Shown piece after piece: positions 6,421 through 62,719 of a stretch of 64,000 nucleotides of DNA. This DNA comes from Octopus vulgaris. Lineage: Eukaryota. The stretch spans positions 158,348,001 to 158,412,000 of the forward strand of contig OX597814.1 of the NCBI GenBank assembly GCA_951406725.2. Reading direction: 5' to 3'. The position numbers were made by a program, and so were the translations under genes. The notes below the pieces were generated by a model. That model did not search any database. It was not told the DNA's origin and saw only the letters and a program-made list of their open reading frames with translations. The number at the start of each line of letters is the position of its first letter. The first letter of the stretch is position 1.

Positions 6421-6616
6421 AAACTCGTTAAAATGAATGTTCCATAATTCACCTTTTGTAGAGAGGAAAACAGACAGATGGAGGAAAATTCTTCTTATAT
6501 ATAGAAGATCTGAAAGTGACCGTGCTTTACCAGTAAGCTACCAAGTGTAAACCATTCGTTTTATTATCCATTATATTTTATTTGCACCGTTGCTGACGTC
6601 CTGTATCCATATGTGC

Positions 6617-6667
<51 letters not shown>

Positions 6668-6905
6668 TAAGGGTAGAAATTGATATTTATCAATTAAGAC
6701 CAGTGGTCTAGCATATTAAAAAAGAATCCGAAGATTAAAATATTTATATATACCAATTAAGGACTGAACACGAAAAGTGGACAGTCAACATGCTAGATAT
6801 AGACATCAAATCGTCATTCACCACAAAAGATTATGTTCTCAGATCAAACTCAACACAAAGCCATAGCAATAAACAAGTGAAAAATATACGAAATAAAATA
6901 ATTAC

Positions 6906-6970
6906 CCATGTACTAACTTAGTTTCAGCTGTTATTTTCCGCAAGGAAAACTGCAGCCATCATCAGCATGG
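6906..6970 (-). ncRNA. Type I hammerhead ribozyme, family A
   Basis: Reverse complement of 7537-7601. Confidence 0.85.
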
Positions 6971-7536
6971 TCCGTTATAAATGTAATTTGCTGGACTAGA
7001 TGCAAACACGATACCGAAATATCGCGTGCATGGAGTTCAGCCTATTACATTTGAATATATCTTTCAAATGCCTTTACTTTGGCGCGTTGAAACCCGAGAA
7101 AACTAGCCTGCAGCTAGTAATTAGCAGCAGTTAATTTATCGGTTAGAGAACATATTTATTTATATAAAATTAATTAAGGGTAGAAATTGATATTTATCAA
7201 TTAAGACCAGTGGTCTAGCATATTAAAAAAGAATCCGAAGATTAAAATATTTATATATACCAATTAAGGACTGAACACGAAAAGTGGACAGTCAACATGC
7301 TAGATATAGACGTCAAATCGTCATTCACCACAAAAGATTATGTTCTCAGATCAAACTCAACACAAAACCATAGCAATAAACAAGTGAAAAATATACGAAA
7401 TAAAATAACTCGGGTTTCAACGCGCCAAAGTAAAGGCATTTGAAAGATATATTCAAATGTAATAGGCTGAACTCCATGCACGCGATATTTCGGTATCGTG
7501 TTTGCATCTAGTCCAGCAAATTACATTTATAACGGA

Positions 7537-7601
7537 CCATGCTGATGATGGCTGCAGTTTTCCTTGCGGAAAATAACAGCTGAAACTAAGTTAGTACATG
7601 G
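7537..7601 (+). ncRNA. Type I hammerhead ribozyme, family A
   Basis: CCAUG-CUGAUGA-u-GGCUG...CAGCU-GAAA-CUAAGUUAG-UA^-CAUGG. Stem I is CCAUG/CAUGG, stem III is ACUA/UAGU, with GUA cleavage after 7596. Confidence 0.85.
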
Positions 7602-8043
7602 GTAATTATTTTATTTCGTATATTTTTCACTTGTTTATTGCTATGGTTTTGTGTTGAGTTTGATCTGAGAACATAATCTTTTGTGGTGAATGACGATTTG
7701 ACGTCTATATCTAGCATGTTGACTGTCCACTTTTCGTGTTCAGTCCTTAATTGGTATATATAAATATTTTAATCTTCGGATTCTTTTTTAATATGCTAGA
7801 CCACTGGTCTTAATTGATAAATATCAATTTCTACCCTTAATTAATTTTATATAAATAAATATGTTCTCTAACCGATAAATTAACTGCTGCTAATTACTAG
7901 CTGCAGGTTAGTTTTCTCGGGTTTCAACGCGCCAAAGTAAAGGCATTTGAAAGATATATTCAAATGTAATAGGCTGAACTCCATGCACGCGATATTTCGG
8001 TATCGTGTTTGCATCTAGTCCAGCAAATTACATTTATAACGGA

Positions 8044-8108
8044 CCATGCTGATGATGGCTGCAGTTTTCCTTGCGGAAAATAACAGCTGAAACTAAGTTA
8101 GTACATGG
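8044..8108 (+). ncRNA. Type I hammerhead ribozyme, family A
   Basis: Same as 7537-7601, offset +507. Confidence 0.85.
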
Positions 8109-8550
8109 GTAATTATTTTATTTCGTATATTTTTCACTTGTTTATTGCTATAGTTTTGTGTTGAGTTTGATCTGAGAACATAATCTTTTGTGGTGAATGA
8201 CGATTTGACGTCTATATCTAGCATGTTGACTGTCCACTTTTCGTGTTCAGTCCTTAATTGGTATATATAAATATTTTAATCTTCGGATTCTTTTTTAATA
8301 TGCTAGACCACTGGTCTTAATTGATAAATATCAATTTCTACCCTTAATTAATTTTATATAAATAAATATGTTCTCTAACCGATAAATTAACTGCTGCTAA
8401 TTACTAGCTGCAGGCTAGTTTTCTCGGGTTTCAACGCGCCAAAGTAAAGGCATTTGAAAGATATATTCAAATGTAATAGGCTGAACTCCATGCACGCGAT
8501 ATTTCGGTATCGTGTTTGCATCTAGTCCAGCAAATTACATTTATAACGGA

Positions 8551-8615
8551 CCATGCTGATGATGGCTGCAGTTTTCCTTGCGGAAAATAACAGCTGAAAC
8601 TAAGTTAGTACATGG
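8551..8615 (+). ncRNA. Type I hammerhead ribozyme, family A
   Basis: Same as 7537-7601, offset +1014. Confidence 0.85.
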
Positions 8616-9057
8616 GTAATTATTTTATTTCGTATATTTTTCACTTGTTTATTGCTATGGTTTTGTGTTGAGTTTGATCTGAGAACATAATCTTTTGTGG
8701 TGAATGACGATTTGACGTCTATATCTAGCATGTTGACTGTCCACTTTTCGTGTTCAGTCCTTAATTGGTATATATAAATATTTTAATCTTCGGATTCTTT
8801 TTTAATATGCTAGACCACTGGTCTTAATTGATAAATATCAATTTCTACCCTTAATTAATTTTATATAAATAAATATGTTCTCTAACCGATAAATTAACTG
8901 CTGCTAATTACTAGCTGCAGGCTAGTTTTCTCGGGTTTCAACGCGCCAAAGTAAAGGCATTTGAAAGATATATTCAAATGTAATAGGCTGAACTCCATGC
9001 ACGCGATATTTCGGTATCGTGTTTGCATCTAGTCCAGCAAATTACATTTATAACGGA

Positions 9058-9122
9058 CCATGCTGATGATAGCTGCAGTTTTCCTTGCGGAAAATAACAG
9101 CTGAAACTAAGTTAGTACATGG
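9058..9122 (+). ncRNA. Type I hammerhead ribozyme, family A
   Basis: As above; a G>A change at 9071 turns the first G.U pair of stem II into A-U. Confidence 0.85.
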
Positions 9123-9273
9123 GTAATTATTTTATTTCGTATATTTTTCACTTGTTTATTGCTATGGTTTTGTGTTGAGTTTGATCTGAGAACATAATCT
9201 TTTGTGGTGAATGACGATTTGACGTCTATATCTAGTATGTTGACTGTCCACTTTTCGTGTTCAGTCCTTAATT

Positions 9274-9309
<36 letters not shown>

Positions 9310-9312
<3 letters not shown>

Positions 9313-9683
9313 TTGTTTTCCGTGAAAGTTTGGCGCGCTGTTAGTTGGGGCATTTGAATTATAACGTCGGATGTAATCAATTGAACCACACGCGTATTTA
9401 TCGTTATGGTAAAATCTGGCGTGTGATTGAGTGGATTTCATCCAGATAGTTTTGGCTGAAGAGCTACAAGTGGATTTTATTGTAAGTAAAATTACATTTA
9501 ATTCATTAATAGCGAAACAATTGTCCCAAAATAATCTGTATTTGTTATTTTTTATTTGCCCTGTCCGTGTGAGCTAACAATCGTACTGACTTTCATGGGA
9601 AACATGTATTTTTGTGGTTGAAACCTTTTGGATTAACTGGTGCTAGAGTGAGCCATATAGTGACCACTCTCTTATATTTATTT

Positions 9684-9685
<2 letters not shown>
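9310..9685 (+). mobile_element. (TA)n-flanked non-coding mini-element carrying HHR family B
   Basis: Bounded by (TA)n at 9276-9308 and 9685-9715, with an internal HHR. Confidence 0.7.
9443..9538 (+). ncRNA. Type I hammerhead ribozyme, family B
   Basis: UUUUGG-CUGAAGA-GCUA...UAGC-GAAA-CAAUUG-UC^-CCAAAA. Stem I extends as CAGAU/AUCUG, with GUC cleavage after 9525. Confidence 0.88.
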
Positions 9686-9715
<30 letters not shown>

Positions 9716-9716
9716 G

Positions 9717-10247
9717 TTATCAGTAATAATATAGGGTGAAATTAATTAATTTGGAATAATCATTAATTTCACCAAATTTCATCCCAGTAAATGACCACAA
9801 CATCTTGTCTTAGCTGCACGCTGGTGGGAAGGGGTTGGTGACACAAACTTTCATTCACACTTTGAATTTGGTGATACTGGTAACGGCTTTAGCTCGCTCT
9901 GATACTGAGTTGAGATGATGCCTTCTAGTACCTCGAAATTTAATATACAATTATTCATAATTGTAGTGTCCTACGCTGATGAGAAAATAAGTTGGGTAAG
10001 ACATAATTATCTAATTCTTATGCTTTCCTAAAACTTAATTTCGAAACGTACGTCCGTAGGTGACTTAAAATTGTATGATAGATTGCCGTCATTTCTTTCT
10101 CTCTTGCCTGTCTGTGTTTGCCTTTCAAGTGCTGTGGTTTTACTGAGATCTCCCTTTTAGTAGAAAGAATAGCTATAACTCTTTGACTGCTATTTCTAAA
10201 TTCGGTGTGTGGTGAGGCAAATCGTTGCTAAACCCTTAATTACTTAG

Positions 10248-10248
<1 letters not shown>
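9717..10248 (+). mobile_element. (TA)n-flanked non-coding mini-element carrying HHR family C, with a short inverted terminal piece at 9720-9775
   Basis: Bounded by (TA)n, contains an HHR and ends CCCTTAATTACTTAG(TA)n. Confidence 0.7.
9970..10060 (+). ncRNA. Type I hammerhead ribozyme, family C
   Basis: CCUACG-CUGAUGA-GAAAAUAAGUU...AACUUAAUUUC-GAAA-CGUACG-UC^-CGUAGG, with GUC cleavage after 10054. Confidence 0.9.
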
Positions 10249-10318
<70 letters not shown>

Positions 10319-11470: not shown

Positions 11471-12242
11471 GTTGAAATATTATACTATTATACTATTAAA
11501 AAAAATCTCAGTTAGCAGTATTAAAATATTATACATTCAAAGACCAGAATGAACAAAAACGTCTTGACCCTGTCACACTGTTCTCGCTATAGCGAGAATA
11601 AGTTTAATGTTATCTTAGCTGGATTCCTTGTAATGTTGTAATGAACAATACATATAAACAAAGAAGATGCAGTCGCTTCTGTCCATTAGTTTGCCTGCAA
11701 TCGTTGCTCTTGGTCTGCATATGCACCTTCTCCTTTTTGGTTCAGGAGCCCAGGTTGAGAACAAAGTTAGAATTCAGATGCCTAGGTTTGAATATGACAT
11801 TTTACAAACGTTGAAAATACAATGCACATGTCTGTAACATGATGTTTGTGTATCTAAAATCAAAGACTGAAGTTTACATTATGCGTGATTAAATCTCAAA
11901 CAGAAGAATTATTAAGAAGAATCTATTAACATGTTAGAAGACACATTTATATGTCACTCTATCATAGCTGAATAGATTATAATTTATTGTCAAAAACTGC
12001 TATTGTTTTAACAATTTGTAGTCTTTGGCTTTTCTTATTTCTAGAACTTAAATATGTCGATCACTAAAAATGTCTTAATTATATTTTAAGCAACGCGGGT
12101 CTTATGATGTAAAACATGTCCAAATAATTATATACATATATTATTTATAATCAGAAGAATTCAAGCACTTAAGTGTATTTTTGGGTGTAGATACGGTTTT
12201 CCGGTACAGAAAACCTCTTCGAAGTCACGAGGTCACGAGTTC

Positions 12243-12790
12243 GGTGAGCTGGCAGAATCGTTAGCACGCCGGGCGAAATGCTCAGCGGTAATTCGTCTGC
12301 TGCTACGTTCTGAGTTCAAATTCCGCTGAGGTCGACTTTGCCTTTCATCCTTTCGGGGTCGATTAAATAAGTACCAGTTACGCATTGGGGTCGATATAAT
12401 CGACTTAGTGCTTTTGTCTATCCTTGTTTGTCTTCTCTGTGTTTAGCCCCTTGTGGGTAGTAAAGAAATAGGTATTTCGTCTGCCGCTACGTTCTGAGTT
12501 CAAATTTCGCCGAGGTCGACTTTGCCTTTCATCCTTTCGGGGTCGATTAAATTAAGTACTAGTTACGCACTGGGGTCGATATAATCGACTTAATCCGTTT
12601 GTCTATCCTTGTCTGTTCCCTCTGTGTTTAGCTCCTTGTGGGTAGTAAAGAAATAGGTATTTCGTCTGCTGCTACGTTCTGAGTTCAAAATCTGCCGAGG
12701 TCGACTTTGCCTTTCATCCTTTCCACTGAAACACTTTGTCTGTCCTTATTTGTTCCATCTATGTTTAGCCCCTTGTGGACAATAAAGAAA
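12243..12790 (+). mobile_element. SINE family 2, one head plus three tandem ~185-bp bodies
   Basis: TTCGTCTGC.GCTACGTTCTGAGTTCAAA...GAGGTCGACTTTGCCTTTCATCCTTTC repeats at about 12290, 12475 and 12660. Confidence 0.85.
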
Positions 12791-25240: not shown

Positions 25241-25726
25241 ATAATCCGCGAGAGTGTGTATGTGTGCATGTTTGTGCGTCTGTGCGTGTGTGTATGTGTG
25301 TGTGTGCGTGCGTGCGTGCGTGTGTGTGTGTGTGTGTGTAATCACTATTTGCATCGTGGGCAACATAATCTTGGACAAATATCTGCATCTTTAATCGTAA
25401 TATGTCTAGGCAGGTTCAGAAACAAAATATGGTAGTCGCTGTAGTGTACGCCATGGAAAAATAACTTATCTCTTTTACTATGACAGTGTGTTTAACGCAC
25501 TCGGCTCATTGGCTCATAGGGGTCTGGGACACCGATGTTTCGACATGTTGTGCTACGTCACCCAATAGTACTCGGGCTTTTGAGCCTAAATCAGGCCGTT
25601 AACTTCGTTAATACTTTCAGCGAAAAAATTGTTTGCTCATCGATGCTTACATCTGCCAACTGATGAAAATGCATTATTTGCACCGTGTCTGAACCCGCAC
25701 AGATGTATTAAAATGCAAATATTCAT

Positions 25727-25757
<31 letters not shown>

Positions 25758-25759
25758 TT

Positions 25760-26240
25760 AATCAATATAGGGTGGCAAAAAAAATTTTGTAGAATTCTTT
25801 TGCCACCAGCGGCCTAGTAGGAAAAAATTAAATAGTCATAAACCATTTTTACGTTCAACATCACAATCAAGGAACGGCCATAATAGGCCATTCACCCACT
25901 AGAAATAACAGCCAAAACCTTTAACCGCAAAATAACATTAATACCGTAAACCAGGAGAAAATTGAAAAACTTTTACCCTGTAATTTCTTAGACGATGCAC
26001 CGTTTCATCTACCGTTTAATGGTAAACTAACCTGATTAAATTAAATCAAGCCAATCCACCATAGGCCCTTAGACTCATCAGTAAGAAATAGCCAAATCGG
26101 AACAGATATTTTTCACGAGGCATTCCTCTTGCTGCCTCGGCAATATCTGACCTAAAATTTTCAAATCGTCGCACTCGCGCCAAATTTATCGGCAGCAAAT
26201 GAACCACCGATTCCGTTACGGAACTAACGGAATTGAACAC
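25760..26240 (-). mobile_element. (TA)n-anchored HHR mini-element, family D, copy 1
   Basis: Homologous to 27740-28195, contains an HHR, and its 3' end abuts (TA)n. Confidence 0.8.
25983..26089 (-). ncRNA. Type I hammerhead ribozyme, family D
   Basis: AUUUCUUA-CUGAUGA-GUCUA...UAGAU-GAAA-CGGUGCAUCG-UC^-UAAGAAAU, with an 8-bp stem I and a long stem II extension. Confidence 0.88.
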
Positions 26241-26477
26241 TTGATGTGGTTTTCGTATCAGATTTTGACTGATATTTCAAGCATGGTGGTATCGCTTAGG
26301 TACCCTTTCATTCTTTTTAGTTTCAGCTCAGAGCTGCGGCCATGCTGATGCACCACCGTTATGCCACCACGCCATTATGCACCACCCTTATTTATATTTT
26401 TAATAATTATAACCTTTAAGGTCCTTTCTTTCCGTACTGCCACTTGATTTGACCGTTGTTTAAAATAATGATCTTAT

Positions 26478-26545
<68 letters not shown>

Positions 26546-27128
26546 GCAGCGTGGAAGGTGTTTATAAGCCATTTAAGAAACACACAAAAGCCGTTCGATT
26601 CACTTCAACATTTAAGTTTAATTTATCAAAATATTTTCGTCGCTAAAATCCGCGACCTGTTCACTGACAAAGTCCGTGCTGCATCTAAGAAAGTAACAGT
26701 TAGTTCGTCATATATATGTACGTATGTATGTGTGTATGTATGCATACATGTGTGTATGTATGTACGTATGCATGTACGCACATACGCCTGTGTATGTATG
26801 TATGTATGTATGTATGTATGTATGTATGTATGTATGTGTGTGTATATGCACGCACATACACTAACGGTATTGAACTAACGGTATTGAACACTTGATGTGG
26901 TTTTCGTATCAGATTTTGACTGATATTTCAAGCATGGTGGTATCGCTTAGGTACCCTTTCATTCTTTTTAGTTTCAGCTCAGAGCTGCGGCCATGCTGAT
27001 GCACCACCGTTATGCCACCACGCCATTATGCACCACCCTTATTTATATTTTTAATAATTATAACCTTTAAGGTCCTTTCTTTCCGTACTGCCACTTGATT
27101 TGCCCGTTGTTTAAAATAATGATCTTAT

Positions 27129-27190
<62 letters not shown>

Positions 27191-27518
27191 GCAGCGTGGA
27201 AGGTGTTTATAAGCCATTTAAGAAACACACAAAAGCCGTTCGATTCACTTCAACATTTAAGTTTAATTTATCAAAATATTTTCGTCGCTAAAATCCGCGA
27301 CCTGTTCACTGACAAAGTCCGTGCTGCATCTAAGAAAGTAACAGTTAGTTCGTCATATATATGTACGTATGTATGTGTGTATGTATGCATACATGTGTGT
27401 ATGTATGTACGTATGCATGTACGCACATACGCCTGTGTATGTATGTATGTATGTATGTATGTATGTATGTATGTATGTATGTATGTATGTATGTGTGTGT
27501 ATATGCACGCACATACAC
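26223..27518. repeat. Near-identical direct tandem duplication of about 650 bp
   Basis: GAACACTTGATGTGG at 26235 and 26886; copies differ mainly in (TA)n and (TATG)n length. Confidence 0.95.
26545..26683. repeat. ~140-bp interspersed repeat with terminal TGCAGC../..GCTGCA inverted ends; other copies at about 27190-27328 and inverted at about 36090-36224
   Basis: Three homologous copies; termini TGCAGCGTGGA and TCCGTGCTGCA. Confidence 0.75.
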
Positions 27519-27739
27519 TCTATAAAACATAAAGCTATAAACCTGTAGCGATGGATGGATGTAGAGTGACCACTCATCACAAAGCTATCAAATTTCAACT
27601 TCCTACGGCCGAAGCTAGAAAGTGATTTATGACGCTTACTCCCAAAACTATACCCTAAAATCTATTATCAGATTTTTATCTCTATATCACAGAACTATTG
27701 TTTTACTGTTATATATTGTTATATATTTACATTTTAGTC

Positions 27740-28193
27740 TCATGACTATTTTTCTTTTCCACTGGGCCGCTGGTAGTGATAAATTTCTATCGAATTTTTT
27801 ACTACCCTAAATTGATTAATTGATTATCTTCTGACTAATTCTGAGATTGAATCGGCAGTTTATATTTGCTGCTGATAAGATTGGCGCGATTACGCTGGTC
27901 TTCGAAAATTTTAAGACAGATATCCCAGAGGCTTCGATGCAGTAGCCTCGTGTATATTTGCCTCTACCAAAGGTTTCTTTACTGATGAGGCGTGACCTAT
28001 GGTAGATTAGCTTAATTTAATTTAATTAAGCTGGTCTATCATTAAAAACGCAGAAACGATGCATCGTCTAAAAGATGAATTAGGGTAAACGTTTTTAATT
28101 TTTCACCTATTTCCGAATTATATTACTTTGCGGTTGGAGTTATGGCTGCTCTGTCTAGTGGATGAATGGCCTGTTAAGGCCATTCCTAAATTG

Positions 28194-28195
<2 letters not shown>
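27740..28195 (+). mobile_element. (TA)n-anchored HHR mini-element, family D, copy 2 (diverged and circularly permuted)
   Basis: Blocks are homologous to the reverse complement of 25760-26240, in rotated order. Confidence 0.75.
27975..28075 (+). ncRNA. Type I hammerhead ribozyme, family D
   Basis: UCUUUA-CUGAUGA-gGCGU...ACGCa-GAAA-CGAUGCAUCG-UC^-UAAAAGA, with GUC cleavage after 28068. Confidence 0.82.
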
Positions 28196-28255
<60 letters not shown>

Positions 28256-29604: not shown

Positions 29605-29679
<75 letters not shown>

Positions 29680-29680
<1 letters not shown>

Positions 29681-29960
29681 GAGGGAGATAAATTAATATT
29701 AATTTAAAACCAGTAGTCTAGCATACAAAAATCTGAAAAATCAGAGAAAATTCTAATACATGTGTATATTGACAGGGCAAACCGCTAGGTAGTCGGCCGC
29801 ATGCTAGAAATAGATCATCAACGATCAAACTACAAAGAATGTTCTCTAGAGGAAAATTCAGCGAACACCAGAAACAAATTAGGCGGGCAAGACAGATGAA
29901 AATTTATATAAAAAACAGAATTAATCGCATACCTCGGTTTCAACTATTAACAAAAGAAAT
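29680..29960 (-). mobile_element. Diverged, 5'-truncated relative of the 507-bp HHR unit
   Basis: Shares ACCAGT.GTCTAGCATA and CATGCTAGA.ATAGA with 6699-6803. Retains only the HHR 3' half GAAACCGAGGUA and abuts (TA)n. Confidence 0.65.
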
Positions 29961-31399
29961 ACTTACATAATTCAAATGTCCGTAGTTTCGTCAGTACGAT
30001 CGTATTTTCAGGAATAGTGTATCTAACTTTTATGGCATCATAATTTTCATACCCTGTGTAATTAGAAAGCGTCTCACTGTGCCTTTTGCTTCCAGGTACT
30101 AAAATCAGAAACGACGTTGATGGCAATTTTGTCGTTATAGCAAATCCACTTGTATCTATTTTGTGTTTTATAGTATTTTTATAGTTTTTTTTCTATTTTA
30201 TTTTGATATAATTTTATATAATATTATTTCCTTGCATGAAGAATAATTTGTTTCATTCAAACTCTGTGACATTTTTCAGATATTCTCAATAAATCTTATC
30301 TTATTCATGCTAAACGTAATTAATCCTCACTTAAAAGTGGATGCTGTATTCGAACACAGAATACTGCGTTATTTACCATGCAATAACCTTTCATATAGAC
30401 TTGTGGTGCATATAAGCACTCATATTTATATCTCTAGTGGGAGATGATCACCCGCTATCACCGTCGAGTCTGTTAATTCAAGCTATCTCCACCCTTGTTG
30501 GCCTTGTCAATGATAGTCGTCCTTAGCTAGAGATAGCAGCAAATTTCCGTTTGCGATATACATAGTATTTCAGTGTCTATTCAGGCAGTGATGTCAAAAG
30601 CATCCACTTATCTTATATGGAGATAAATACTATCTTTCGTTTTTAATGCTGATTCTATTAGTATTTAATTATTTTTTATAAGCCCCACTGGCTATTTACA
30701 ACACTAATGCCTAAATAGACACTGAGATTCTATGTATATCACTGATGGGGGAATCACTACTATCTCTAGCCACGGGTATCTGCTATTGGTAAAGCCAAGG
30801 AACAGAAGTTATAGGAGCTGGTAGTCCCGGTGGCGATAGTGGACGATTATCTCCTGCCAGCGATATAAATACGACTGTTTGTATCCACTGCAAGTCCTTA
30901 TGAAAGGTTCTCTCTTAGTAATTAACACAGTATTCTGTGTTCTAAAATAACACACACTTTTAAGTAGGAATAAATATTACCTTAACCACGTTGTTTGAGA
31001 TGTAATTCTCAATCTTCTATAGTTGAGAAGTCTTTTCTTTTATATACAATTTAAGGGTTCTACATCGATTATTTTGAATATATATTTTTTTGTTATTCGT
31101 TTTGCATAACAATACACTGATTTCTGACTGAGGATCAAATTGAAAGATGCTATTAGTCTTTGTTTTGTTTTCCTCTCTCTTTCGCAACTGCATGTTACAT
31201 TCTTTTTTTTTCTTTACCTTATTTTCTCTACATTTTATTCCTAAATTTTAGTAGCAGTATTTTAGCACGTTATTTATGCGCGATACATCTAGACAGTATC
31301 TTCAGTTAAGTTGTCAACTTTAATTATTTTTTCATTCTGTTTTTGAGAAACACTTTTTTAAATGAATTCTCCTGTGAAGATTTCTTCTGTCAAATATAT

Positions 31400-49320: not shown

Positions 49321-49379
49321 TATATGTAAAATAATATATACGGACCGACAGAAAAGAAAGGAGTCATGGAGGAGTTGCT

Positions 49380-50189
49380 ATGTACATCCGTGAGGACCTC
49401 ACACCCCAGGTTTTTCTGTCATACTCAAACTCGGTGTGTGACACACTAATTGTACATGTAAGGCAACTTGGTGTAGTTGTGTGTGCTACATATCGCCCTC
49501 CAGATGCCCCAAGCCATATGGGCAAGTTTGAAGACTGCCTTATAAAAATAGAAGAAGTTCTAGTCACACTAGAACAGCACATGAGTGTACCTCTCATGGG
49601 AGACTTCAACCTACCCAATGTCAGATGGCCCGAGGGCCCTTCTCTCCCAGGAATGACACGATGTGAACGGGGACAGGCGAGGTCCCTCCTGAACCTCATC
49701 AACACCCTGTACATGGAGCAAGTAATACTCCAACCAACCAGGGCAGGTAACACACTGGATCTCTGCTTCACAAATAATATGGATCTCATCCATAATGTGA
49801 AAGTGACACCGACACTACTCTCGGATCACAACATGGTAGAGCTGACCATGTACGGGCCAAAGGAAAGCATGGACATGCAGCCTACAAGAAACTCTCAGAA
49901 TCTTTCCAGCTTGAACTTCAATAAGGCAAACTGGAAACAAATTGAGAAAGAGATCCTCAAACAAAACTGGCCTGAATGTCTCTCCTCGCCGGACATCGAC
50001 ATGAAACTTCAACAATTCATGTCTGTAATGCAAGCCATATACTACAAATGTTTCCCAGAGAGAAAGGCCACTATACACAAGAACAAAATCCCCAGAGAGA
50101 GGAAAATTCTAATGAGACGGCGCACAAAAATCTCAAATCGCCTAAACAAACAAATTGAAAGCAGTGAAAATGAAACTGTTGGAAATTGA
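49380..50189 (+). pseudogene. LINE ORF2 AP-endonuclease domain (partial)
   Basis: YRPP, GDFN, PTR, LDL and SDH motifs; frameshift near 50165. Confidence 0.9.
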
Positions 50190-52497
50190 AAACTGTCTGC
50201 AACTCTCCCATGAAAAGGAAAGAACAGACAAAGAAGCCTGGGCTATAGACAACATAAAATCTAACCCCAGAGCTTTCTACAGGTATGCCAAAGAAACAGC
50301 TACGGTGCACTGTAGGATAGGGCCACTCCTTGAAAGGGATGGCACACTCACAGGAAATCCAATGAGGGTAAATGAAATACTAAATGAGCAATTCAAGAGT
50401 GTTTTCACCCCACCCCTTGGGCATTTCCAGATCAGCAATCCAACTGACTTCTTCACCACTGCAGATATGGGGTCAGAGGCGGCGATGATTGATTACATCA
50501 ATATAAAGGAAGACGATGTAATAAAGGCTATAGATGAGATGGAAACAAACTCAGCTACTGGCCCCGATGGATTCCCAGCAATCCTTCTAAAAGTATGTAA
50601 GAGGGTCCTAGCAAGGCCACTGCGGTCTCTCTTTCAGAGCTTCCTTGCAACTGGCAAACTTCCAAGAAAACTGAAGGAAGGTAAAATATGCCCTATTCAT
50701 AAAGGAGGTAGCAGAGCGGAGGCCAAGAACTACAGACCTATCTCTCTAACCTCACACATCAGCAAGGTCATGGAACTAATAGTCAGAAGGAAACTAATCA
50801 CCTTCCTTGAAGAAAATGACTTGCTGCCTGACACCCAACATGGTTTCCGACCAGGAAGAAGCTGCTTAACTCAGCTCCTACAACACTATGACTGGGTGCT
50901 GAAACAACTGCTCAACCACTCAAATGTGGAAGTCATATATCTCGACTTTGCAAAGGCCTTTGATAAAGTCGATCATGATAAAGTCGATATGTCACAAACT
51001 GCGTGATCTTGGCATAGTTGGAAAATTGGGAGAATGGCTTCATGACTTTCTGAAGAATAGAAGTCAGGTGGTAGCAGCCAATGGGGCCACTTCCATTAAC
51101 ACGCAAATAGTGAGCGGTGTTCCGCAGGGCACTGTTTTGGGACCACTACTGTTCATAATGGCCCTCTCAGACATGCCCTCAGCCACGCAGAGAGCCACGA
51201 TCACAAGTTATGCAGATGATACAAAAGTTTCACAGGCAATACGATGGTTCCGGGTTCAGTCCCACTGCGAGGCATCTTGAGCAAGTGTCTTCTGCTATAG
51301 CCCCGGGCCGACCAATGCCTTGTGAGTGGATTTGGTAGACGGAAACTGAAAGAAGCCTGTCGTATATATGTATATATATATATGTGTGTGTTTGTGTGTC
51401 TGTGTTTGTCCCCCTAGCATCGCTTGACAACCGATGCTGGTGTGTTTACGTCCCCGTCACTTAGCGGTTCGGCAAAAAAGAGACCGATAGAATAAGTACT
51501 GGGCTTACAAAGAATAAGTCCCGGGGTCGAGTTGCTCGATTAAAGGCGGTGCTCCAGCATGGCCGCAGTCAAATGACTGAAACAAGTAAAAGAGAAAGAG
51601 AAAGAGAAAGAGAGAATACAGAACCCTGAAGACACTAAGCACCTGCAATGTGAGCTGGACGAAATATACAAGTGGGCTGAAAAGAATAGCATGCAGTTCA
51701 ATGCTGAAAAGTTTCAAGCTTTATACTATCAGCATGCAAAACTGAATGCAATACCCAATGAATACACTGGACCCGGAGGGATTGCAATCCCAGAGGCACA
51801 ATCAGTGCGTGACCTGGGTATTCACATGAGTGATGACGCGACCTTTCATGTACATGTTGCTAAACTGGCAAGGAAATGTAGACGGCTGGCTGGATGGATT
51901 CTTAGAACCTTTAGAACAAGAGAACAAGAAACCATGATGGTCCTCGGGAAGACACTTGTCCTAAGCCACTTTGACTATTGCTCTCAGCTATGGTCACCAT
52001 CCAGTGTCAAGTTGATCACAGAACTTGAGGCGATCCAACGAAGCTACACGAAGAAGATAGCCTCTGTGCAGCATATGAGCTACCGGGAAAGACTCAAGAG
52101 ATTAAAGCTCTATTCCCTGGAGCGCAGGCGAGAAAGATATGCCATAATATATATCTGGAAGATCCTGGAAGGACTTGTCCCAAACTTTGGCATCGTGAGT
52201 CACACAAATGCCAGAACCGGGGGCCACTGCGTAGTACCAAGGACTCCAAATTTGCCATCAAGATGTAGGACAAGATACTGTGATAGCCTGGGCTTCAGAG
52301 GCCCACAGCTCTTCAATATCCTCCCGAAGAATCTGAGGGACCTGCATGGTGTAGATGCGGATGTCTTTAAAGTAGGACTGGATCTCTTCCTGTCAGGTGT
52401 CCCGGATGGACCAACTTCACGGCAGGAGGTGCAGATGAGGGCAGCTGCATCGAACTCTCTCATGCATCAGATGGCGTTTGCTAAAAAGCATCCGTGA
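50155..52497 (+). pseudogene. LINE ORF2 reverse transcriptase and C-terminus, split over ORFs 50155..51006, 50924..51280 and 51691..52497
   Basis: Canonical RT blocks. A short TGATAAAGTCGAT duplication near 50960-50990 and the SINE insertion break the frame. Confidence 0.92.
51243..51614 (+). mobile_element. 5'-truncated SINE family 1 inserted in the LINE RT
   Basis: AATAC is duplicated at 51238-51242 and 51615-51619; removing the insert restores YADDTKVSQAIQNPEDT. Confidence 0.92.
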
Positions 52498-52590: not shown

Positions 52591-54402
<1,812 letters not shown>

Positions 54403-60995: not shown

Positions 60996-62620
60996 CTTAG
61001 ATTGGTTTTCGGCCATTATCGGCGCAGGCGATGACTAACTCCATAGCACTACCTGGAAAAGTTAATTATTTCGTGGCACCATGGACCACTCGAGCAAAGA
61101 GTTGTTGAGACGTATCCAGATGTAGGTGCTTTATCCGGTATTTCCTGGAGGAATTTGTCCAGGTACTGTTTGAAAGTTGTGGGGTCTTTTTCTTCTTCAA
61201 TTTCTTTTGGATAACATTGGAAAATACAGGACCATTTGCAGTGAAGAAATTGTGTGGCAATGTTCTTATGTGGTGTGATTTAGACCTTTGTAGGGGACTC
61301 ATTGCACGGGTGCCTAGTCTTGTATGAATTGTAAACATAATGCCAATATCATTTGGATAATATTGGTGGAATATTTTCCACATGGTGCAAATAATGTATC
61401 GCTCAGGCTGCTTTGTAGAGAATAGCCCAATAATCAAGTCCAAGCATGCTATTTATAAGTTTTTTGTGTGATAGATCTTTATGACGCTTCGATCCTCGTT
61501 ATGTCTTGTTTTTTTGCAGGGGGACCACAATGGGTAGCAGTATTCTAGATAGGACCTAATGAATGTGGAGAAGAGAAGGATGATGGTTTTATGATCCCTA
61601 GATTGGAAAGTTCTGAGGATCCATGAGCACATTCTGCAGGCAACATCGACATTTATGTTGATGTGCACACTCCAGCTAAGGTTGCTGTCGACAGTTACAC
61701 CTAAGTCTCTGATATTATCCGACGGCTCAAGTAGGTTTCCTGATGGTAGTGTATGTGGTTGTTTGAGTGTGCCCTCTTTTCCAAAGTGGATGAGCTCAAA
61801 TTTTTCTTCGCTCAAATGCATATTGTCTTTTTTTTTGTACTCACTGGTTTACAGCGCATATATCTGATTGAAGCATTGTTTGATCATATGCTCCCTTAAT
61901 GAGATTCTGGAGCTTAGAATTATCTGCAAATATTTTTAAAGCGCTATGTTCAATGGAATCTGCAATGTCATTGATATAGACAATAAAAAGAAATGGACCC
62001 AGCACAGTACTCTGTGGGACTCCACTGATGACTTTTGCTGGTCTTGAGTGGATGCCATCAACCACAACATGCTGGGTCCTGTTTATTAGGAAATACCTAA
62101 TCCATTGAAGTAGTTTTCCACGGTCGACTCTATCAAAGGCATTGCTGAAATCAACGTATATGACATCCGCGTTGGAGCTCTCACTTAGTGCATTTAAGAT
62201 GTCATCAAAGTGATGGAGGAGCTGTGTTAGACAGGCCCTCCTACCACAAAAGCCATGCTGGTTGCAATTTAGCAGAGGATTTTGTTCTAGGAAGGCTGCT
62301 ATTCTTGATCTCAACACTCTCTCAAATATGTTCATGATATGTGAGGTGAGTGAGATTGGATGGTAGTTTACAGGGAGCGATTTATTACCCTTTTTAAAGA
62401 TAAGAACGACTGACTGCGAGAGAAGGTTTTGTTGGATAAAACCGGCAGCCAGTGATTTTCTCCAGAGATTTCCAAGAGGAGCTGCAAGTTGTTGTCTGCA
62501 TTCCTTCAGCACTTCAGCGGGGAACCTGTCCGGCCCCACAGCTGAATCAGGTTTGATTTCTTTTATTGCTGATAGGATATTAGTGGCGTCGAAAGTTACG
62601 TCGGAAAGGACATGTTGAGG

Positions 62621-62623
<3 letters not shown>
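60995..62623 (-). mobile_element. 5'-truncated degenerate RT LINE (second family, related to 49340-52590)
   Basis: GPDRFP, NYHPISLTS, NQHGF, DFSNAFDRV, SGVPQSTVLGPFLF, FADN and RDLGV..WILRTF; bounded by (TA)n and (CA)n. Confidence 0.92.
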
Positions 62624-62711
<88 letters not shown>

Positions 62712-62719
62712 CGTACATA

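Follow-up and report, generated by a model that had tools for sequence, protein, structure and literature searches.

Elements in the window

The window (the whole stretch of Octopus vulgaris DNA that was analysed, 64,000 nt) is microsatellite-rich animal DNA with a GC content of 35% and 87 tandem-repeat rows, in which six elements, here called A to F, carry hammerhead ribozyme (HHR) motifs. Array A (6645–9288) is built of tandem, non-coding, HHR-bearing units of 507 nt, arranged as a direct arm (7409–9288) with four HHRs and an inverted arm (6645–7408) with one. Elements B and C follow, chained through (TA)n tracts: a first tract (9276–9308, delimited by tandem-repeat and TA scans) leads from array A to element B (9309–9683, + strand), whose 3′ end enters a second tract (9684–9715) from the left, with an inverted 3′ tip (9716–9775, − strand) entering it from the right. 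The body of element C (9771–10247, + strand) overlaps this tip by 5 nt (9771–9775) and is followed by a third tract (10248–10298) that goes on as (TG)n and (TACA)n.

Elements D (25758–26213, − strand, HHR core at 26081, 3′ end in the TA tract 25733–25757), E (27715–28194, + strand, HHR core at 27982) and F (29679–29994, − strand, HHR core at 29994, 3′ end in TA) lie within 4.3 kb of each other and are thus not fully independent. E, a relative of D, is a single unit of about 480 nt in circular permutation (27715–28201), with ATTGTTATATAT at both ends, a 12-nt terminal redundancy as expected of a tandem or circular template, while F is related to A in its 3′ part. A remnant of a Penelope-like element (PLE) ORF, 5′-truncated and comprising a C-terminal endonuclease, is located at 53449–54285 (− strand) beside an (AT)n tract (54289–54332).

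Other repeats include a 650-bp tandem duplication between D and E (26221–26862 and 26872–27519, 97% identical) with TA and TATG tracts, LINE remnants with RT, endonuclease and zinc-finger fragments (136–2435, 49335–52497, and 61453–62719), and a SINE-like repeat present in many copies in the window (e.g., 12242–12723); the SINE-like repeats and the amount of satellite DNA are similar to those of an octopus genome. The flanks before the TA tracts of array A (6570–6620) and element D (25675–25733) have TTATTTGCACCG in common, possibly the end of another TA-associated repeat.

Hammerhead motifs B and C

The whole window was scanned with an HHR descriptor (core, three helices, and cleavage triplet), with 100 dinucleotide shuffles of the microsatellite-masked window as control. 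Nine cores were found (four on the + strand and one on the − strand, the latter in the inverted arm, in array A, together with those of B, C, D, and F), against 0.04 per shuffle at loose settings and 0.01 at the stringency of B and C; the core of element E was added by a relaxed scan. HHR B (9443–9538, + strand) has the core CUGAAGA (9456–9462), a helix I of 6 bp (UUUUGG/CCAAAA) plus an extension, a helix II (GCUA/UAGC) with a long extension, followed by GAAA-CAAUUG-UC, and a predicted cut after C9525 (9525/9526, GUC). HHR C (9965–10066, + strand) combines the core CUGAUGA (9976–9982) with helix I CCUACG/CGUAGG, helix II GAAA/UUUC plus an extension, GAAA-CGUACG-UC, and a predicted cut after C10054 (10054/10055, GUC). 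Both show the type I arrangement, that is, CUGANGA...GAAA...UH with helices I, II, and III and open at helix I, and both share the canonical metazoan type I geometry as outlined in the available part of PMC4209133. Helix III is merely 2 bp with a palindromic loop (CAAUUG in B, CGUACG in C). In whole-segment folds, helices I and II had pairing probabilities of 0.90–0.98 and helix III of at most 0.03 in the monomer, with fold z-scores of −3.5 for HHR B and −2.1 for HHR C. Across the six elements helix I pairs in 34 of 36 cells with differing base pairs, a pairing that was itself a search requirement.

An Rfam scan of the whole window (E ≤ 1) returned no hammerhead family and matched microsatellite-driven miRNA only, so the HHR assignment rests on the descriptor; the long helix II extension is a likely cause of the miss for B and C. 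The Rfam result, together with core changes among variants of the C family (see below), would be in line with chance matches or fully decayed sequence, an explanation that deserves hardly any weight given a chance rate of just 0.01–0.04 per window and the intact state of all core positions and all helix I and helix II pairs in the window copies of B and C. The sequence-only reading had recognised HHR B and HHR C by these cores and cut sites, at these positions, and a scan far above shuffles and the folds both agree with it. It had also counted six co-oriented ribozymes of three families: six + strand cores do lie between 7542 and 9976, but a seventh copy is present in array A on the − strand (6965–6911), the segment of C opens with the inverted tip (9716–9775), and the six cores amount to three insertions, whose common orientation is unremarkable (p = 0.25).

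Limits, kinship, and variants of B and C

The 5′ and 3′ flanks of the six elements were compared pairwise (30 comparisons, 500 shuffles each). Four comparisons lay above all 500 shuffles, namely A–B on the 5′ side (z 8.1), A–F on the 3′ side (z 14.2), and D–E on both sides (z 23 and 28). The region shared by A and B spans about 65 nt on the 5′ side of the ribozyme (score 43 vs. a null of 19.1 ± 2.9, 0/500 shuffles). Like the right end of array A, B also stops precisely 159 nt past its cut site. No other pair reached significance in the 30 tests, including C with A or B, and an apparent likeness of B and C in the 3′ alignment was dropped (z 0.1). Judged by these flanks, B is distantly related to array A and C is a separate family, so that the description of both as unrelated elements stands for C and falls for B.

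The stretch 9313–10247 was compared with four of 24 sequencing runs, among them X9 and X19, which consist of contigs and are RNA by guess alone. Contigs matching B and C at 85–100% identity numbered 328 in X9 and 208 in X19 and covered 30 of 30 bins in both, so B and C are multi-variant families, and the repetition elsewhere on which the sequence-only reading had made its case depend is borne out for both elements in two runs. Summed contig depth was higher for B than for C, depth not being equivalent to copy number, and the raw DNA runs X22 and X23 gave 0 and 25 reads, the latter at element ends only. Among the 40 of 70 variant rows listed, B variants contained one core change (9460 A>C, at the free, variable position N7), and in the variant 9470 G>A pairing is retained, A-U replacing G-U. 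C variants included the core change U4>C in three contigs (122/171 of the depth in X9) and a break of helix I at 10060. Part of the C family has thus decayed, and a large number of its copies may be inactive.

The contigs also bear on the limits of the elements. In one X19 contig, B goes on for another 56 nt ahead of 9317, in sequence other than TA, and the B copy of the window is thus likely 5′-truncated. Six X9 and two X19 contigs match up to 9775 and then continue into other shared sequence, and one X19 contig begins at 9771, which marks 9716–9775 as a separate inverted piece, likely the tail of C’s own family or of another one. Among the joints listed for the four runs, no unit-length joint that goes back was found for B or C. 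Contig depth was increased on the terminal modules (10177–10247 and 9729–9792) relative to the C body, and seven X23 reads joined sequence upstream of the inverted tip to the last 50 nt of C; numerous copies may consist of nothing but the tip, or there may be sharing or rearrangement of the modules.

Both elements are non-coding, a few hundred bp long, low in GC, and equipped with one type I HHR each, the features by which non-LTR retrozymes are recognised. Coding similarity to 46 PLE proteins or their profile was not detected in B or C, and an ORF with RT and C-terminal GIY-YIG domains is absent from both.

Association with (TA)n tracts and the 3′ module

All seven element ends (two of A and one each of B, C, D, E, and F) reach TA 127–252 nt after the cut site, and 15.2% of random non-TA positions have TA within 260 nt downstream. 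On the upstream side, TA is found at distances of 217, 339, 490, 881, and 3627 nt, so the link between HHR and TA is polar. Outside the B and C finding, the neighbouring elements D, E, and F all end in TA (3/3, p about 0.004). These three ends, set against the 15% background, and the order HHR then TA in autonomous relatives (see below) speak for (TA)n targeting, in line with the earlier proposal that (TA)n tracts are hotspots for these elements. Almost all PLE families of the Hydra clade insert into (TA)n and have readily detected canonical HHRs, and TA targeting is described for both Hydra and Naiad PLEs (PMC8557442, available part).

At their 3′ ends the elements have a module consisting of a stem-loop, C-CTWWATT, a short spacer, and TA. 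It comprises the stem AGAGTG/CACTCT and CTTATATT in B (9645–9683, + strand; weak fold, z −0.4), a 12-bp stem-loop (z −4.0) and CCCTATATT in the inverted tip, and a stem-loop (z −1.1) and CCCTTAATT (10233–10241) in C (10211–10247, + strand), followed by TA in each case. A C-CTWWATT-like pattern within 14 nt of a tract, which is post hoc as it was derived from these same ends, matched 7 of 100 TA edges, all of them element ends (A both, B, the inverted tip, C, D, and E), against a background of 1%; the end of element F was missed by the pattern. A stem-loop precedes the pattern each time (fold z from −0.3 to −5.4 over eight ends), strong in five ends and weak in B, C, and F, and the stems of D and E differ by two double changes that both preserve pairing. 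A and D/E have two modules each, about 95–105 nt apart (vs. a tail of 30–40 bp described in the accessible text of PMC3846280), and insertions end at either. In array A, the inverted arm begins about 10 nt past the unit cut site and stops at the second module, and the direct arm stops at the first.

The TA could also be partly a product of the elements, if the RT slipped on the terminal TATA and lengthened the tract. D, E, and F do have long TA at the 3′ end only, the 5′ end of E showing just a short TATAT, and the clustering of three of the six events in a single tract is a mild excess and modestly unlikely by chance (p 0.015–0.05, post hoc). The module is missing from 93 of 100 TA edges, so TA tracts are plentiful even where these elements do not occur, which together with the published TA targeting of Hydra and Naiad PLEs (PMC8557442, in the part available) makes such an origin of the tracts rather unlikely; it would be compatible with the TA-targeted insertion that we favour.

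Upstream motif

The sequence TTTGGCGCG (9329–9337, + strand) is situated about 120 nt upstream of the B core. Its shorter form, TTGGCGCG, has eight matches in the 64 kb against 0.34 expected, all inside A (five), B, D, and E, and 94–119 nt upstream of HHR cores (e.g., 7421–7428, 9330–9337, 26176–26183, and 27881–27888). It is absent from elements C and F and occurs in just one of 78 Hydra-like PLE loci (see below). We take the TTTGGCGCG/TTGGCGCG motif to be E2F-site-like, and it is a possible internal promoter element.

Penelope-like remnant and related loci

The PLE remnant contains a CxCX5C linker as well as CxxC and CxH around conserved E and N, which are Hydra-clade motifs (given as such in the available part of PMC8557442), and was assigned by motif only, with no Pfam family matching it. 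In protein searches it was 37–47% identical to its relatives, the matches including RT-endonuclease proteins of 600–720 aa (38–45% identity), and no intact helper was identified by these searches. No HHR was found behind the remnant ORF in the window. The remnant is likely to represent the type of helper that would move the short elements. A Naiad helper was rejected, as the endonuclease of the remnant is C-terminal and that of Naiads N-terminal; the latter are furthermore described as being without canonical HHRs in the accessible text of PMC8557442.

The comparison set consisted of 78 Hydra-like metagenome loci related to the remnant, 50 of which had a 3′ tail of at least 200 nt. A sense HHR was present in 29 of these 50 tails and an antisense one in a single tail (0.02 in shuffles), with the core 93–367 nt past the end of the ORF, and TA followed the HHR in 11 of the 29. 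One locus (L074) has the same CUGAAGA core and CAAUUG helix III as B. TA density was 0.007 per kb in the ORFs vs. 0.81 per kb in the tails, a weak control in that coding sequence excludes TA runs. Nucleotide similarity of the short elements to the 78 loci, which are from other hosts, did not go beyond 17–31 nt, and the 3′ module was not seen by eye in the printed locus tails. HHR-bearing pieces are chained through TA near Hydra-like ORFs in L055 (2900–3345), L009 (60–520), and L048 (2780–3060), and TA-linked HHR chains thus occur in other animals.

An alternative reading takes B and C to be 5′-truncated 3′ ends (pseudo-LTRs) of autonomous PLEs with long 3′ UTRs. Truncation at the 5′ end and inverted tips belong to normal PLE insertion (PMC8557442 and PMC3846280, available parts), and B and C have only about 150–200 nt upstream of the core, a length that fits within the 93–367 nt between ORF and core in the Hydra-like loci. 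On the other hand, B aligns collinearly with the 507-nt unit of A, which is non-coding, the 3′ module of E runs directly into the unit start and the HHR without an ORF, and neither B nor C retains a coding remnant. The anatomy of A and E and the lack of PLE coding similarity in B and C make this origin less likely, and we regard it as an outside chance.

Chained elements and the proposed chimeric transcripts

The sequence-only reading had further suggested that a single A-(TA)-B-(TA)-C RNA is cut at each HHR, and that the resulting chimeras (408 nt for A–B and 529 nt for B–C) found new families. All sites being on one strand, such a transcript would contain them together, a 1251-nt read-through fold likewise contains helices I and II of HHR B and HHR C, coral and mussel retrozymes are reported to cleave as monomers (PMC7229834, available part), and the seven X23 reads mentioned above show rearranged end modules at the DNA level. 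The helix III palindromes are nevertheless predicted to pair within families (B:B −6.4, C:C −9.8, and A:A −8.6 kcal/mol) and not between them (A:B +0.3, A:C −1.0, and B:C +0.2 kcal/mol), so dimeric activation between neighbours in cis is predicted to be disfavoured. The co-orientation of the three events is not significant, a B–C bridge was absent among the contigs listed (a weak test, as 9667–9726 was skipped), and none of the six window elements has the internal long TA tract that a chimera would carry. With predicted cross-family energies of +0.3 to −1.0 kcal/mol, the A–B and B–C chimeric fragments find no support here, and we consider this route to new families very improbable. Cleavage of B and C as monomers is possible, as in the coral and mussel retrozymes; in Xenopus, eight of nine dimers were without cleavage according to the available part of bioRxiv 10.64898/2026.07.22.740005.

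A proposed model of passenger elements

Taken together, we favour, with a probability of roughly 0.7, the interpretation that B and C each represent one copy, from two short non-coding families that probably travel as non-autonomous passengers, of the non-LTR retrozyme type, with a TA-targeting PLE, and that they probably entered their common TA tract in separate events. Tandem loci of the kind of array A would serve as sources of transcripts, with TTGGCGCG possibly marking an internal promoter, and the RNA would be cut by HHRs of the same family into units of about 480–510 nt, aided by the pairing of palindromic helices III. The RT/GIY-YIG protein of a Hydra-type PLE would then nick a (TA)n tract, with reverse transcription beginning at the 3′ module (stem-loop, C-CTWWATT, a few bases, and TATA). 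Synthesis may stop early, as presumed for B, add a short inverted tip (C), proceed once round the unit (E), or produce tandem and inverted arms (A). As TA would be left beside every insertion, the tract would remain a target and elements could accumulate in it.

Comparison with known systems

The closest described systems are the metazoan non-LTR retrozymes (Cervera and de la Pena 2020, PMC7229834, and Li et al. 2026, bioRxiv 10.64898/2026.07.22.740005, available parts), which likewise consist of GC-poor units that lack coding capacity and carry a single type I HHR, occur as tandem arrays and dispersed monomers (tandem here for A only), co-occur with PLEs, and are proposed to derive from pLTRs as non-autonomous PLE derivatives. 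The unit size of about 480–510 nt exceeds the 170–400 nt given in the available text of PMC7229834 and falls within the 51–972 bp of that of bioRxiv 10.64898/2026.07.22.740005. The elements in the window differ from retrozymes in their long helix II extension and in 3′ ends that dock at (TA)n via a common stem-loop module, a feature not found in the available portions of the retrozyme accounts. Like Hydra-clade PLEs (Craig et al. 2021, PMC8557442, available part), they show 5′ truncation, insert into (TA)n, and carry the HHR close to their 3′ end, whereas B and C encode nothing and have no alignable DNA with the 78 autonomous loci; the distance from HHR to TA (127–252 nt vs. 9–113 nt) and the helix II span (32–68 nt vs. 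10–25 nt) are also larger in the short elements than in the Hydra-like loci. A further shared feature, with the HHRs of PLE pseudo-LTRs (Cervera and de la Pena 2014, PMC4209133, in the part available), is a helix III that is short and palindromic and so lends itself to cleavage in dimers; B and C differ from those HHRs in that helix I (6 bp) and helix II (4 bp) are canonical and not of the minimal type. The pLTR-plus-tail insertions of Arkhipova et al. 2013 (PMC3846280, available text) resemble those seen here in an inverted 5′ piece joined by microhomology and an optional tail at one end.

Non-LTR retrozymes, TA targeting by the Hydra clade, and inverted pLTR-plus-tail insertions are known, and the class as such is published. 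Octopus repeat annotation mentions Penelope-like elements, and hammerheads do not appear in the available part of that account (PMC13282606). No account of the families described here or of their 3′ module was found in the available literature, and the families may already be catalogued in Repbase, Dfam, or the supplements of PMC8557442.

For the A-B-C chain as such, the best reading is that elements inserted repeatedly, and in an ordinary manner, into a target that they prefer. More tentatively, and with the odds against it, at least four to five divergent HHR mini-element families in one genome may share a 3′ docking signal for PLE priming on (TA)n that is kept by compensation and present twice per unit; together with the E2F-like motif as an internal promoter, this would provide the first defined cis-signals of non-autonomous PLE mobilisation, with A-B-C chains as end-swap sites. 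The parts worth following are the 3′ module and, ahead of the HHR cores, the TTGGCGCG motif. RT priming, the choice of microsatellite, and the use of hammerheads are listed as open questions for PLEs in the available part of PMC8557442. Small non-coding passengers would reduce the problem of PLE priming and targeting to cis-signals, for which the common 3′ module, with two alternative end points per unit, may offer a concrete minimal substrate.
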